In this document: positions 46,825 to 60,094 of the stretch, piece by piece
Position numbering within the stretch: position 1 is the first letter of the stretch
Layout of the letters: the number at the start of each line of letters is the position of its first letter
Origin: a phage
Reading direction: 5' to 3' (one strand)
Length of the DNA: 62,144 nucleotides
Sequence record: PX021331.1
The notes under the pieces: model-generated
Seen by the model: the letters and a program-made list of their open reading frames with translations, nothing else
Told to the model about the DNA's origin: nothing
The model's database searches: none
Translations under genes and position numbers: made by a program

Positions 46825-47772
46825 CTAGCTCATATCCACTGGATCACGGAAAGACTGGTGCGTAGGGATCCGCAGCTTGTCTTTCATACCGTGGAGGAAG
46901 AACTTAAACTTAGAAATCCGTCCCAGGAACTTATCCGGGTTCTGGAAGTAGTAAAGTCGTTCCTCATGGGTAAGTTTACCCGCGCCAACCGTCATTTCAT
47001 CACCGACCTTCAACTTAATGTGGTCAGGTAGATTTTCGGGTACGGTCAGAAGTGTGACCACATATGACCCGATCATTCCGTTCGGCACCATGTTGTCCTG
47101 ATGCGTACTGCGGAACGTTTGTCCCAGCTCGTTGATCTGAGCTTCGTTCTGGTTGGACATACCTTCATTAATGCGGACAATAACACCTTCCCCATCAGTG
47201 AAGCGTTTGATGCGACCGTACCCGCCTTCGCGCGAAGTGGCGCGTCCGCGTTTGCACGGCTTGCCGGGTTTGCGGGTAATGACACCCTCGTAACCCATTT
47301 CAATCCAGATTGCTTCCTGCTCCAGCAGCTCGTTCATGTTGTTAACGAGTACCATTGGCACAACCTTCAGATCCATTAAGCGACCTTCCAATTGTTCCTG
47401 TTCTACGTACTCGCTTAACATAGCATGACGTTTTTCGTATGGCAAGTGTTGAACACTGTCCGCGCACAAATCAAAAACGTGCCACGTCCAGAAGAACTCG
47501 CCTTCGATAGTGCTACTCGCAGAGCTGGTCTTACGACACAGATCCGGATCACACTCATCACCAGCAGCAAGCTCACCATCAAAACCCTCATAACAAGGTT
47601 TAGAGAATAAGCGTGTCAGGTGTTTGTTCGCAAACGGTTTCAAGCTACGACCCGTCAGCGTACCGTCATAGTTAAGACCGCGCACACCGTCAATCTTAGG
47701 CAGTGCGTACAGTGGGAACGAATCAGGCCGCTCCTCAAAGTCACACGCCAGGAAAGGTTTAAACTTACTCAT
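46825..47772 (-). CDS. ATP-dependent DNA ligase
   Basis: 315 aa from internal ATG with GAGGAA upstream; adenylation motif I KIDGVRG. Confidence 0.8.
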   Translation of the reverse strand: MSKFKPFLACDFEERPDSFPLYALPKIDGVRGLNYDGTLTGRSLKPFANKHLTRLFSKPCYEGFDGELAAGDECDPDLCRKTSSASSTIEGEFFWTWHVFDLCADSVQHLPYEKRHAMLSEYVEQEQLEGRLMDLKVVPMVLVNNMNELLEQEAIWIEMGYEGVITRKPGKPCKRGRATSREGGYGRIKRFTDGEGVIVRINEGMSNQNEAQINELGQTFRSTHQDNMVPNGMIGSYVVTLLTVPENLPDHIKLKVGDEMTVGAGKLTHEERLYYFQNPDKFLGRISKFKFFLHGMKDKLRIPTHQSFRDPVDMS

Positions 47773-48383
47773 TAACTGTTCCTCAGACGAATAGAGGTTG
47801 TGTCCACCAGTAGCTGACGAAACTTGCGTTTCCAATACTCTACGCTGTTTTCGTCGTTCACCTTTGCGACTGGTGTGACCTTCTTTGCACTCGCAGGCTT
47901 AGAGTCTTGTATCTGTTTCTTTAAACCTGCGCAGTGGATCTTCTGACGCTCCATCCGCATGTACTTGCCCGCAGTTTCATCACATCTGTTTTGGGCTTTG
48001 GTGCGGTTCTGGTCACAGCGATTATTGTGCCCTTTAATATGCTTGAACTGCAATGTGAGGTCGTTTGCTTTAGCAATACGCTCCATCCAGTCCAGCGCTT
48101 CTTTCTCTGCGCGGCGTGCGGGACGCTTGCGCGTAAACATATCGATTGCTGGCATACAATCCATTTGAAGCAGAATACGGTCACCCCGCATTACGTAGCC
48201 GTTTGTGATAGCATGGTGCAATCCGTTGCACGCGGCTTTAGCTTCCGCTTCACCGCTATCCTTTGTGCCAGTTAACGGCCCGCCGAATGTACCCCTGCCG
48301 CGGTTCGACGCAACCCACACGCCATATCCGCCAGCAAGGGTATTCGGGCAGAATGACGCATCAGTAATGATGGTCACTAACAT
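47772..48383 (-). CDS. ribonuclease H
   Basis: 203 aa; IITDASF...GGYGV and later KGHNNRCD resemble RNase HI motifs (TDGS...GGxG, KGH...CD). Confidence 0.7.
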   Translation of the reverse strand: MLVTIITDASFCPNTLAGGYGVWVASNRGRGTFGGPLTGTKDSGEAEAKAACNGLHHAITNGYVMRGDRILLQMDCMPAIDMFTRKRPARRAEKEALDWMERIAKANDLTLQFKHIKGHNNRCDQNRTKAQNRCDETAGKYMRMERQKIHCAGLKKQIQDSKPASAKKVTPVAKVNDENSVEYWKRKFRQLLVDTTSIRLRNS

Positions 48384-48386
48384 CTG

Positions 48387-48812
48387 TTAACCCTTAATCT
48401 TAATAGAAACCTGAGGCGAACCCCATTTGGACGTGACACATTCGTCCATCACGTTGCGCTGCTCTTCGGTCAACTTCTTATAGTTGCCTACGCGGAGTTC
48501 AACTTTGGTCTCAACAACCTCGTTGACGTCAACACCTTTCTCCATCAGCTCCTGCACGATGTTAGAGAAGATCGCCTTGTCAACTTTGCGGTCAATACCG
48601 CAAACGATTTTCAGCTCATCGCCGGTAGGAAGTTTGACGGTGTTAGTCCCTTCCTTCTTCTGGTCTTCCGGCAGGTAAATACTGACCACAGTATCACGCA
48701 GAGCACGCTCTTGCGCCTGTACGGTCTGGAGCTCTTGCTTTTTGTTATACCAGTTGAACAGCAGCTCCAGCTTGGCTTCCGGAGTCATTTCGGTCTTTGG
48801 TAACTGAACCAT
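48387..48812 (-). CDS. hypothetical protein
   Basis: 141-aa ORF with good spacing from neighbours. Confidence 0.6.
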   Translation of the reverse strand: MVQLPKTEMTPEAKLELLFNWYNKKQELQTVQAQERALRDTVVSIYLPEDQKKEGTNTVKLPTGDELKIVCGIDRKVDKAIFSNIVQELMEKGVDVNEVVETKVELRVGNYKKLTEEQRNVMDECVTSKWGSPQVSIKIKG

Positions 48813-48893: not shown

Positions 48894-49481
48894 TTAAAAC
48901 TTCTTACCGCCTTCCAGCTTGCGGTTCTCTAACTTGTGGTCAGCACGGTTGGCGTTATATGCACGTTTATCACCAATGGCAGCAGGAATATCCCAGCCCC
49001 AATTCTCAGCGTGATAAATCATGTCCATAACGATCGCCAGCTCGAATGCAGCAACAGGCAGAGTTGTTTCAATAGCGGCGTCAAGCTGCATGATTTGGTC
49101 TTTGCGAACACCTTCCAGCGCGAAGCCAATGTGAGCGTGAAGGTCTGCGTAATACTTATAGAAGTTTACGTTTTCGTAAGACAGTGGAACCACTTCCGCA
49201 GCGTCCAGGCTGTATACAGCTTGCAGCGCTTTCTCAATGTTCCACCCTTTGTGACCAAAGAAGTCGTAGATGCGAATTGCAGCATCCGCCAGCTCAACGA
49301 CTGCGTTTTGGTACTGTGGCAGGTGATGATCAGGAATGTCCTGCTCAAACCCCACATAGGACTCAACTACTTCTGAATGGATCAGAGCAATGGTAGTCCC
49401 GTCTGGGCGGCCATCCGCCCACCAGCCAGCCTTGACGTTATGGTCGTAGATAGCTTTTACCAGTTCATTAGTGATGTTCAT
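48894..49481 (-). CDS. MazG-like nucleoside triphosphate pyrophosphohydrolase (putative)
   Basis: 195 aa; all-alpha NTP-PPase-like acidic motifs ALIHSEVVESYVGF and AVVELADAAIRIYDFF. Confidence 0.5.
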   Translation of the reverse strand: MNITNELVKAIYDHNVKAGWWADGRPDGTTIALIHSEVVESYVGFEQDIPDHHLPQYQNAVVELADAAIRIYDFFGHKGWNIEKALQAVYSLDAAEVVPLSYENVNFYKYYADLHAHIGFALEGVRKDQIMQLDAAIETTLPVAAFELAIVMDMIYHAENWGWDIPAAIGDKRAYNANRADHKLENRKLEGGKKF

Positions 49482-49942
49482 GTTGCGCTTCCGTTACGTT
49501 TGATATATTCAAGGGCGTGCGCTTTAAAGATTACACGGAAATCATCCAGTGAGATCTCGCAGCGCGGGGGATCATCTGCGTGATGGTGCTTCTCATCAGC
49601 AAACAGTATGATAGGATTCATAAACAGAATGACTTTCCACTTCTGTTTATTCTGACGATAGATAAGTACGGGAAACTTATTAACTTCGAGCGCACTTACT
49701 AAACACTGGCGCCACCATGTGTTTATTGAGAGCGCTTCTTGTCTCTTAACTTCGACAGCATAGAAACAAGTATTGGAAATATCACAACCGCCAACAGCCG
49801 ACTGGTTCTGATTTCGTTGGGCGATAGGCTTAGGTGGGAGCGGCATGTGTAGCGCTGCATATACTTCTGCATAGATGCTATTAAAGAAGTCACAAATTTC
49901 TCTTTCACCAGTTTGCCCCTTAGTTCTTACGTTGATTGCCAT
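49478..49942 (-). CDS. PD-(D/E)xK-like endonuclease (possible resolvase)
   Basis: 154 aa; GGCDIS...YAVEVKRQ fits a D...E-x-K pattern. Confidence 0.45.
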   Translation of the reverse strand: MAINVRTKGQTGEREICDFFNSIYAEVYAALHMPLPPKPIAQRNQNQSAVGGCDISNTCFYAVEVKRQEALSINTWWRQCLVSALEVNKFPVLIYRQNKQKWKVILFMNPIILFADEKHHHADDPPRCEISLDDFRVIFKAHALEYIKRNGSAT

Positions 49943-55739: not shown

Positions 55740-55949
55740 TTACCTGAAAGGTTTATCTAACTGGCTAGCGGGAACCATGCGGATTACAGTATCATAATCC
55801 TCATAGCGGGATGGATCAAAGAGAGGCATTGCATCTGCCGCTTGATCCTGGTTGTCGAAGACCTGGAGCACCTTGCGCACCTTGCACAACGTACCGTCAA
55901 ACTCTTCGTCAAAGAACTGCTCTACTTCGCAGATGCAGAACTTTTCCAT
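55740..55949 (-). CDS. small acidic protein
   Basis: 69 aa, rich in Asp/Glu/Phe (EVEQFFDEEFDG). Confidence 0.5.
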   Translation of the reverse strand: MEKFCICEVEQFFDEEFDGTLCKVRKVLQVFDNQDQAADAMPLFDPSRYEDYDTVIRMVPASQLDKPFR

Positions 55950-56369
55950 TTAGAACTCCTTGAGCTGGATGTAAGCGTCAAGAGTGAGTACGTAGTGACC
56001 GATCAGCCATTCGTACTCCGCCACCTCGTTGCACTGGTTGCCCTTGGCGAGGGTCACATGTGGTTTAAAGTCGTAGCCCGTATAGGTAAGGCCCAGGCGG
56101 TCGTACACGTGACGCGCTTCGGCCCAGTCGCGCGGGTTAAGCACTGCAACGGTAACGTCCGCGCCTTCCCAATACTCGATTGACATTACAGGCGAGCGTG
56201 ACGGTAACGGGCCAGTAAGCGAATCACACGGAATGTAAGTCGTACCAGCAGCGTCCAGGAATGCCATAGTCACGTGCAGCTTGCTTTGATCAAAGCCAAT
56301 CAAGTCCAGTACAGACGGGCAATCGTCGAACGCTACGCGAACGCCCACAATCATTTTCAGTTTAGACAT
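55950..56369 (-). CDS. 2H phosphoesterase superfamily protein (two H-x-T motifs)
   Basis: 139 aa from internal ATG with AAGGA upstream (track ORF extends to 56447); KLHVTMAF at residues 30-37 and KPHVTLAK at 102-109, 72 aa apart. Confidence 0.55.
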   Translation of the reverse strand: MSKLKMIVGVRVAFDDCPSVLDLIGFDQSKLHVTMAFLDAAGTTYIPCDSLTGPLPSRSPVMSIEYWEGADVTVAVLNPRDWAEARHVYDRLGLTYTGYDFKPHVTLAKGNQCNEVAEYEWLIGHYVLTLDAYIQLKEF

Positions 56370-56712
56370 CTTCTTTGTCCTTCTGATGGAACGTTGGTTC
56401 CATGGTGTAAGTATAGCGACCGTTCGGTGTTGCTGTACGGTTGCCAATGATTGCTACAATACGTTCCAGTTCTTGAAGTTTAGGAAGGATTTCCCTTGCA
56501 GAGCTATACTTCTTATCTTCAATTGCGGACTGGAGCTCTTCGATTGTCTTATCACGATAGTCACAAAGAGCACAGAAAAGAACGCCGGAATCCACTGTAA
56601 TTGTGTCTTCCTTTTTGTATGGCCCGTGGAACGGGTCGTACAACATAGTGCCGCCAAAAGGCGGTTCGCTAAACACGGGTTGATTAAACGCGTCAGGAAT
56701 TTTGTCAGCCAT
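56362..56712 (-). CDS. hypothetical protein
   Basis: 116 aa from internal ATG with GGAG upstream. Confidence 0.5.
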   Translation of the reverse strand: MADKIPDAFNQPVFSEPPFGGTMLYDPFHGPYKKEDTITVDSGVLFCALCDYRDKTIEELQSAIEDKKYSSAREILPKLQELERIVAIIGNRTATPNGRYTYTMEPTFHQKDKEDV

Positions 56713-57718: not shown

Positions 57719-57904
57719 TTACACCCCGTAAACACAATAGATGATTGCATCACGCAGAGACTTGTGATACATGGTGCAAGCGTACCATCCTTCAGGTTTC
57801 TTCTTGATGGTAAGAGTTTGCTTACCTCTTTGAATCACGTAGTAGCAGTGATTCGCGATGTCCCGCTTAACAATATACGGGACTTGACGGAAGCGCTTCT
57901 GCAT
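57719..57904 (-). CDS. hypothetical small protein
   Basis: 61-aa ORF, basic. Confidence 0.4.
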   Translation of the reverse strand: MQKRFRQVPYIVKRDIANHCYYVIQRGKQTLTIKKKPEGWYACTMYHKSLRDAIIYCVYGV

Positions 57905-58740: not shown

Positions 58741-58897
58741 ACGACTCTCCTCGCCGGCCGCCGCAATAGAGGTGACCACATTATAAGGTTGTGCAGTGTG
58801 GTCAGCCTACCGAGCCTCACCCATACTCCACGCCTGTTGAGATTTGCAAATGGGATTTTAACAGTTTTTATAAACGGATTTAAATTTGATTGTTTGT

Positions 58898-59156
58898 AAA
58901 CTGCGATCACTAGACGATTCGCAGTTTTGCATTTGGCGGTATGCTGATCGCAGTTTTTGCAATGATCGCAGTTTGCTGATCGCAGTTTGCTAGTTTTTGC
59001 ATTTCTTGCATTGCGTTGCATTTTATGAACGAAATGCAGGTTTGGGAACCGCGAATCCCGCGGCTGGTGCGGGTTTTAGCGCGATGCCACCTCAGGCAAT
59101 GCGTGGCTATGGTACGTTAACCTCTAAAATCTTAAACCGCGATCAGATCGCAGTTT
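58898..59156. repeat. iteron cluster: 11-mer GATCGCAGTTT (4 direct perfect, 1 inverted perfect, 1 imperfect) plus TTGCAT repeats
   Basis: Copies at ~58946, 58964, 58978, 59146 (direct), 58898 (inverted, AAACTGCGATC), 58917 (GATTCGCAGTTT); TTGCAT repeated at least 5 times at 58926-59024; each 11-mer contains a GATC. Confidence 0.6.
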
Positions 59157-59157
59157 C

Positions 59158-59300
59158 ATTAAAAACATAAAAAAATAAAATACAAACAATACAACTACTT
59201 ACTAACTACTACTTTTACCTTTATTTTCAAGCACTTACAGCACTAATTTTTTGCATTTCATCAAAGAAATACAAGCAAAATACACCAATGCAAGAATTTT
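59158..59300. other. AT-rich tract next to the iterons (possible DNA unwinding element)
   Basis: ~140 nt dominated by A/T (ATTAAAAACATAAAAAAATAAAATACAAACAATACAACTACTTACTAACTACTAC...). Confidence 0.45.
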
Positions 59301-59308
59301 GACATGTC

Positions 59309-59350
59309 CGCGCGTGCATGGATGCGCGTAGCGCCTGCGTGCGTGTGCGC
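59309..59350. other. GC-rich alternating purine-pyrimidine tracts (Z-DNA-prone)
   Basis: CGCGCGTGCATG and TGCGTGCGTGTGCGC are strictly alternating Py/Pu runs of 12 and 15 nt. Confidence 0.35.
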
Positions 59351-59414
59351 CCGCGTTATTAGCACAAAAATTGCAGCCTGTAAACGATTCTTTTTCGGAT
59401 AGCGTTTCGGTGTA

Positions 59415-59623
59415 GCGAAATGGATTTTTGTGGAGGCAAAACGATTCTATTTTGGAGTGAAAATCGGAAAACGGTTCGGGAAAACGCCGTTTATCAGCGT
59501 TTGCCAGGGCTAAAAGGGTCGCAAAGGTGGGCGAAAATCGCGAAAATAGGCCGGGTTTTCGGGGTGTACAGGCCGCGCTGTAGGCTCGCCAGTAGGGTAG
59601 CCAGGGTATGGGGGTGAAAATCG
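59415..59623. repeat. array of ~8 short A-tract motifs G(N)GAAAA(T)CG
   Basis: GCGAAATGG, GGCAAAACG, GTGAAAATCGG, GGAAAACGG, GGGAAAACG, GCGAAAATCG, GCGAAAATAGG, GTGAAAATCG over ~210 nt; consistent with bent DNA or a protein-binding array. Confidence 0.45.
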
Positions 59624-59792
59624 CTTAAACTCGCGCATATTGGCCCACCAGCGGGGTCGCTGTAAGCCGATATAAGCCGGCGTTATTTGGGTCTGTATAT
59701 TAGTATAGAGTGAAGGTTGGGCGTGTTATAGGGCGATACAGCGAGGATTTACCGTGGTCAAGCTGGTGCGGTAGGTGTTTTGCGGGTGCTAT

Positions 59793-59826
59793 AAACGATA
59801 AAAACCCGTTGGATATCAACGGGTTA
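59793..59826 (-). terminator. rho-independent terminator of the right-end early unit (stem AACCCGTTG/CAACGGGTT)
   Basis: 9-bp stem with GATATC loop followed on the minus strand by TTTTATCG, 25-50 nt after the stop at 59849. Confidence 0.55.
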
Positions 59827-59848
59827 TGGGGTGTATAATGCAGTTGAA

Positions 59849-60094
59849 CTATTTAACTGCTAACAATACCGCAATGGTACTATCAGGAAGCGTACCAGTT
59901 CCCAGCAGCTTAAAGTGGCGCGTGTTTGCGCTGTTGTAGCGGTCGAGCAGCTCTTGCGCAGCGTATGCAGCGTTGCCCTCATCGGTGAGAGCATGGTCTT
60001 GCCCGGTAATAACACACAGGTCGAGACCCATAGCTTTAAAGCGAGTACCCTTGCGTTCGGAGGGTGCAAGTTTCTTCACGTGGATAGCTTTCAT
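59849..60094 (-). CDS. hypothetical protein
   Basis: 81 aa from internal ATG with GGAGGG upstream. Confidence 0.5.
   Translation of the reverse strand: MKAIHVKKLAPSERKGTRFKAMGLDLCVITGQDHALTDEGNAAYAAQELLDRYNSANTRHFKLLGTGTLPDSTIAVLLAVK

Follow-up and report, generated by a model that had tools for sequence, protein, structure and literature searches.

A compact Acb1-like 2H phosphodiesterase gene of a Queuovirinae-like siphophage, a candidate anti-immunity gene

Introduction

Few enzymatic routes are known by which phages overcome nucleotide-based immunity, and the Acb1-type nucleases represent one of them. The phage DNA of sequence record PX021331.1 (62,144 nucleotides, hereafter the window) is a phage genome of roughly 60 kb that carries on its minus strand, at positions 55950..56369, a gene coding for a small protein with two H-x-T motifs, and the question that this locus raises is whether the protein is an enzyme of that kind. 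The initial annotation, made from the sequence alone, had proposed a candidate Acb1-like anti-signaling enzyme, and the analysis described here supports this proposal, profile homology and predicted fold both being closest to Acb1. The function that we favor, with reasonable rather than high confidence, is that of a catalytically competent, metal-independent phosphodiesterase of the Acb1 lineage that would open cyclic oligonucleotide immune signals of the host. The protein is probably another anti-immunity enzyme, possibly with an altered base specificity.

Should it work as Acb1 does, the protein would bind a host cyclic di- or trinucleotide signal of the cyclic oligonucleotide-based antiphage signaling system (CBASS) type, its two His/Thr pairs would drive the attack of the ribose 2′-OH on the adjacent 3′-5′ phosphodiester, and the ring would open via a 2′,3′-cyclic phosphate intermediate to render a linear 3′-phosphate product unable to activate the effector, whereby abortive infection would be blocked. 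If the enzyme is active, the known reach of signal-degrading counter-defense would extend to siphophages that infect Klebsiella and E. coli, among them phages of the type used in therapy collections, and its family would show, as an experiment of nature, how nucleotide specificity is set in 2H enzymes.

The gene and its homologues

The coding sequence, 55950..56369 on the minus strand with the stop codon included, specifies 139 amino acids between an ATG at 56369-56367 and a TAA at 55952-55950, and it is the single 2H-like open reading frame (ORF) within the window. Its identification is based on the ORF list and translation, 27 close homologues, the ratio of nonsynonymous to synonymous substitution rates (dN/dS), and a confident 2H structural model. 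A putative Shine-Dalgarno-like site, GAAGGA, can be read 8 nt 5′ of the ATG (56378..56383, minus strand), and the first 8 nt of the gene are shared with the 3′ end of its upstream neighbor. A reading of 165 amino acids starting at a TTG was rejected because it would overlap this upstream gene, which is conserved; the annotation of the related Klebsiella phage vB_Kpn_K9PH25C2 uses the equivalent short form.

The two motifs are KLHVTMAF, including H32-V33-T34 (56268..56276, minus strand), and KPHVTLAK, including H104-V105-T106 (56052..56060, minus strand). His32 and His104 are exactly 72 residues apart, in agreement with the initial annotation, which had described the motifs as about 72 residues apart in a protein of about 140 amino acids and had taken them as the signature of the 2H superfamily. 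A search of 5.8 billion proteins identified 29 homologues, most of them on contigs of 60-62 kb, and an exhaustive search of 1.84 billion representatives at 50% identity gave 61 matches at E ≤0.001, at least one of which is spurious (P0034, a repetitive protein of 542 amino acids). The family alignment includes 53 of the 61 representatives, which are 24-80% identical to the window protein and belong to a family distributed among Queuovirinae-like phages, T5-like Vibrio phages, and others. Residues H32, T34, V74, P103, and H104 are invariant in the 53 sequences, while conservation reaches at least 90% at Y66, W67, T73, G93, Y96, T106 (52/53), G110, and Y133. Since four of the motif-associated residues (H32, T34, P103, and H104) do not vary in such diverse representatives and T106 is retained in at least 90% of them, the pattern goes beyond chance, and the ORF and its motifs are confirmed as real.

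Purifying selection acts on the gene, its dN/dS being 0.13-0.18 when compared to two relatives versus 0.08 for the primase, with synonymous sites near saturation, and the first 30 residues of the protein evolve fast. A non-catalytic role, either as a binder that would act as a sponge or as a decaying 2H remnant, finds nothing specific in its favor beyond this fast-evolving segment and the small size of the protein; the catalytic His and Thr residues, invariant or nearly so in the 53 representatives, and the dN/dS values argue against it, and we regard it as extremely improbable.

Sequence relationship to Acb1

On the basis of profile comparisons the window protein is homologous to Acb1. Its best Pfam family is Acb1 (PF23474; 19.8 bits, E 7e-4) and it matches phrog_755 with an E value of 2.4e-6; T4 gene 57B, which codes for the founding Acb1, matches the same two families at 202.7 bits and 5e-68, respectively. 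When the family profile was compared to the PDB, the Acb1 chains were found at E values of 4.3e-8 and 1.5e-7 and the next non-Acb1 chain at 0.021. Comparison by hhalign gave a probability of 95.4% to T4 Acb1 and of 98.1% (E 9.5e-14) to an alignment of 15 canonical Acb1 sequences. Pfam Acb1 is matched by 43 of the 53 family members at E ≤0.01, the best at 3.3e-13. A hidden Markov model built from canonical Acb1 gave family members scores spread from 6 to 45 bits, with 14.8 bits for the window protein, which indicates that the family grades into Acb1 and places the window protein at its far end. Pairwise BLASTP aligned only a core of 47 residues with T4 Acb1, and a single-sequence search of the PDB gave marginal matches only, including chance matches to NadD; the profile search was preferred.

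A census of 273 Acb1 homologues was made by BLASTp with default settings (PMC9117128). Because it relied on BLASTp from T4 Acb1, this census probably missed the short Acb1-like family; the Vibrio and Shewanella phages that carry relatives are not mentioned in the supplements of that paper, and our literature search found no paper testing the short subfamily.

The gene is labeled ‘RNA ligase’ in two of its three close phage relatives, the record of the third being without annotation. T4 gene 57B itself (L003, 13953-14411) is named ‘RNA ligase’ in RefSeq and the description of PHROG 755 is identical, so the relatives carry this label by its propagation to new annotations, and on Acb1-like genes the GenBank label is misleading. 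A rival reading is that of an RNA 2′,3′-cyclic phosphodiesterase or end-healing enzyme similar to LigT/ThpR, which would repair or process RNA ends, for example those of tRNA cut by host anticodon nucleases. Three families of this type were compared to the window protein (TIGR02258, PF02834, and PF13563), and its scores fell far under their curated cut-offs: 15.4 versus 65.7 bits for TIGR02258, 13.5 versus 23.3 for LigT_PEase, and 12.4 versus 27 for the third. With sequence profiles about six orders of magnitude in favor of Acb1 and a label that is shared with T4 Acb1, we consider an RNA end-healing function quite unlikely; the gene neighborhood, described below, also argues against it.

Predicted fold

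A first AlphaFold model, made from the alignment of the 27 close homologues, was poor (predicted local distance difference test, pLDDT, 42.6) and was discarded, but that made from the 53-sequence alignment reached a pLDDT of 92.4 and a predicted template modeling score of 0.86, with both HxT motifs on beta strands. The fold predicted by this model is 2H (LigT-like), as the initial annotation had anticipated, and in the comparison with LigT and Acb1 that it had suggested Acb1 ranks above LigT. The best structure matches were the phosphodiesterase of Burkholderia phage BCSR5 (score 10.9), deposited as Acb1 and for which we found no paper in the literature, the penguinpox cyclic GMP-AMP (cGAMP) phosphodiesterase (10.6), and the Acb1 of phage FBB1 with 3′3′-cGAMP (9.6). 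They were followed by Usb1 (8.9), a 2′-5′ RNA ligase, the rotavirus VP3 phosphodiesterase and the bacterial cyclic phosphodiesterase (CPDase) of Deinococcus (8.8 each), E. coli LigT (8.4), AKAP18 (8.3), and mouse hepatitis virus (MHV) ns2 (8.1). The three nearest solved structures are therefore all those of viral enzymes that degrade immune signals of the cyclic dinucleotide type, with a modest margin over generic 2H proteins. The Foldseek ranking agrees at the top, where the five best PDB matches correspond to the two Acb1 proteins, and in a viral structure library unnamed close relatives come first and several proteins carrying the name Acb1 rank next.

The putative substrate pocket

In Acb1, base stacking involves residues Y12, W74, F107, and W147, E141 recognizes the adenine N6, residues 145-152 constitute a lid, and the pocket excludes rings of more than three bases (PMC9117128). 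As a consequence of the adenine reading by E141, adenosine is required and cGG is not cut (PMC9117128). In the alignment with the T4 protein, H32/T34 and H104/T106 of the window protein correspond to the catalytic pairs H44/T46 and H113/T115, P103 with the conserved P112, and Y133 with the conserved Y139; F101 keeps the aromatic character of Y110. The Y66-W67 pair (56169..56174, minus strand) includes the equivalent of the base-stacking W74, which is Trp in 49 and Phe in 4 of the 53 representatives.

Several other results weigh against an enzyme that behaves as Acb1. The Pfam Acb1 score of 19.8 bits is below the gathering cut-off of 27 bits, and among the close relatives four to five score 18-21 bits, also below the cut-off, and two others have no match at E 0.01. 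Glu141, invariant in the 15 canonical Acb1 sequences, corresponds in the profile and merged alignments to Gln135 (55965..55967, minus strand), in a column where the family has Arg in 30, Lys in 10, Gln in 7, and Glu in 1 of its members. Base stacking by Tyr12 is lost in the window protein, which has Ile7 at this position, occupied by Tyr in 42 of the 53 family members, and F107, which falls in a one-residue insertion in the merged alignment, has no clear equivalent. The C-terminal lid with Trp147 is absent: in the same alignment the terminal residues I134-Q-L-K-E-F139 (55953..55970, minus strand) stop where the lid would start, with F139 aligned with T4 L145, and a K-[DE]-F terminus is common among family members. 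As Glu141, Tyr12, Phe107, and the Trp147 lid are changed or missing, substrate recognition may differ from that of Acb1, or the enzyme may have little activity on CBASS signals. The Trp147 tail is also missing in three distant Pfam-positive Acb1 proteins (P0153, P0155, and P0156), therefore the lid is not universal in the Acb1 family. Judged from these alignments, the family is a compact Acb1-like subfamily that keeps the catalytic tetrad, has a changed base-reading residue, and lacks the lid.

These differences lead to an alternative in which an Acb1-type enzyme has been retargeted to a nucleotide signal that canonical Acb1 cannot cleave, the candidates being cyclic dinucleotides with guanine or uracil (cGG or 3′3′-cUU, for example), 2′-5′-linked rings, the larger cA4 or cA6 rings, and cyclic phosphates derived from ADP-ribose. 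Such a change would be consistent with the presence of Arg, Lys, or Gln at the E141 position in 47 of the 53 family members, with a pocket that has no closing lid, with the adenosine requirement, sparing of cGG and exclusion of larger rings by Acb1 (PMC9117128), and with the finding that viral LigT-like phosphodiesterases have been re-adapted to different messengers (PMC11410667). On the other hand, its basis is one alignment column plus a missing tail, and a tail of this kind is also missing in the distant Acb1 proteins mentioned above, so we consider retargeting unlikely and continue to favor cleavage of signals of the kind opened by Acb1. As a tentative extension, the lidless Arg/Lys/Gln family could have a substrate range unlike that of Acb1, cutting 3′ of guanosine or uridine or accepting the rings that Acb1 excludes. 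If true, this would cover CBASS or other immune signals such as 3′3′-c-di-UMP and 3′2′-cGAMP, for which a 2022 screen had no phage nuclease that degrades them, or cGG, which T4 Acb1 leaves uncut, or cA4, for which Acb1 is too closed. The altered base-reading residue thus offers a specific and testable prediction, although the Acb1 kind of enzyme is well established.

Genomic context

The gene belongs to a run of small minus-strand genes located just upstream of the gene for an 846-amino acid primase/helicase, and the placement among small genes in the initial annotation was correct. The sole close relatives in INPHARED are the Klebsiella phages vB_Kpn_K9PH25C2 (Queuovirinae) and vB_Kpn2-P2 and the Escherichia phage Ec1-ASingh, whose primases are 80-90% identical to that of the window, the next group being Nonagvirus (JenK1) with 51%. 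All three relatives have the 2H gene, with 70-72% protein identity, and Nonagvirus JenK1 does not, having unrelated small genes upstream of its primase. In a distant but syntenic contig (L015) the identities are 46% for the 2H protein, 61% for the primase, and 92% for a gp8-like protein, indicating that the 2H gene evolves faster than its neighbors. The synteny of the 60.5-kb contig coding for P0153, a canonical Acb1 homologue, was also considered and rejected, as the contig comes from an unrelated phage that carries genes for ribonucleotide reductase.

A comparison of loci, in which a 12-sequence subset led to 14 loci in three collections, a small sample of neighborhoods, showed no neighbor family that recurs outside the Queuovirinae-like clade across the 14 independent locus groups. 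A low-sensitivity pattern scan of one genome per species, covering 185,579 species of bacteria and archaea, gave a single match, in a metagenome-assembled contig. The 2H gene is a stand-alone accessory gene. An RNA end-healing enzyme would be expected together with an RNA ligase or kinase, but no partner gene is conserved in these locus groups, and no RNA ligase or polynucleotide kinase was found for the phage clade, none being annotated in the approximately 88% of the K9PH25C2 record that was examined; the ligase of the window is a Chlorella-virus-type DNA ligase.

Of the ten neighbors scanned, a 61-amino acid ORF (57719-57904, minus strand) is the only one to reach a curated cut-off for a known function: it scores 77.9 bits (cut-off 25) with Pfam N4_GP8, the family of the phage N4 protein that inhibits DNA replication of the host. 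This gene is located 1.3 kb upstream of the 2H gene and looks like a component of a host-takeover region, where the 2H gene would presumably be expressed early. A promoter and terminator scan of the 52-62 kb segment gave the counts expected from shuffled sequence and is for this reason uninformative on timing. Rfam showed no match in the 55-62 kb segment, and PADLOC had none for the 2H gene, as expected of an anti-defense gene.

Other features of the region

The ORF directly upstream of the 2H gene codes for 116 amino acids (56362-56712, minus strand) and is found in the window, K9PH25C2, and L009. Phage vB_Kpn2-P2 lacks it and has its first approximately 14 codons (MANKI...) fused in frame to the 2H ORF (L002, 7956-8417), a leader-fused form that explains the 153-amino acid versions present in many homologues. 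The 116-amino acid cassette appears to have been gained or lost via the shared leader sequence. Downstream of the 2H gene there is a 69-amino acid ORF (phrog_27256; 55740-55949, minus strand) that is absent from K9PH25C2 and found upstream of the 2H gene in contig L015, indicating that small genes have been reshuffled locally in its surroundings.

Six copies of TGATCGCAGTTT, four of them exact and on both strands, are present within 260 bp at 58898-59156, where 0.4 would be expected by chance. They lie in an ORF-poor gap (approximately 58800-60090) that includes 1.3 kb with no minus-strand ORF of 110 amino acids or more; the relatives have a comparable gap without annotated genes, and Rfam gave no match in that of the window. 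An array of operators or iterons, or the early control region, could account for these copies.

The replication-side ORFs (46828-47772, 47775-48383, 48390-48812, and 49481-49942, minus strand) include the Chlorella-virus-type ATP-dependent DNA ligase (E 3e-45 to PDB 7OBN), RNase H, a DUF7173 protein, and a PDDEXK_15 endonuclease. A 7-deazaguanine gene set (QueD, QueE, FolE, and a DpdA-like gene) is annotated in K9PH25C2, and is known here from the annotation of this relative only.

Comparison with known systems

The window protein shares the 2H fold and the HxT/HxT tetrad with the Acb1 proteins of T4 (gp57B), Erwinia phage FBB1 (PDB 7T26/7T27), and BCSR5 (PDB 9Q2G/9Q2Y). The likeness extends to the PH(I/V)TL motif, the equivalents of W74 and Y139, the phrog_755 match, the profile homology (98.1%), and the nature of the gene as a small stand-alone phage accessory gene. 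It differs from Acb1 in having 139 rather than about 150 amino acids, with fewer residues separating strand 1 from the first HxT, and in being encoded by a Queuovirinae-like siphophage instead of a T4-like myophage. The penguinpox cGAMP phosphodiesterase (PDB 9BKQ), from an avian poxvirus and thus from a eukaryotic virus, is 17% identical, has 203 amino acids, and possesses an N-terminal lid. The LigT/ThpR proteins (E. coli LigT, 5LDI; PH0099, 1VGJ) are cellular and larger (170-190 amino acids), and they match less well than Acb1 by both sequence and structure. The rotavirus VP3 C-terminal domain (4RPT) and MHV ns2 (4Z5V), whose substrate is 2′-5′ oligoadenylate (2-5A) of the animal OAS-RNase L pathway, rank under the Acb1 and cGAMP phosphodiesterase matches. 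Because of its score below the Pfam cut-off, the change at the Glu141 position, and the missing lid, the window protein is not filed as a canonical Acb1; it can best be described as belonging to a short, lidless subfamily that is a sister of Acb1 among the LigT-like phosphodiesterases of viruses.
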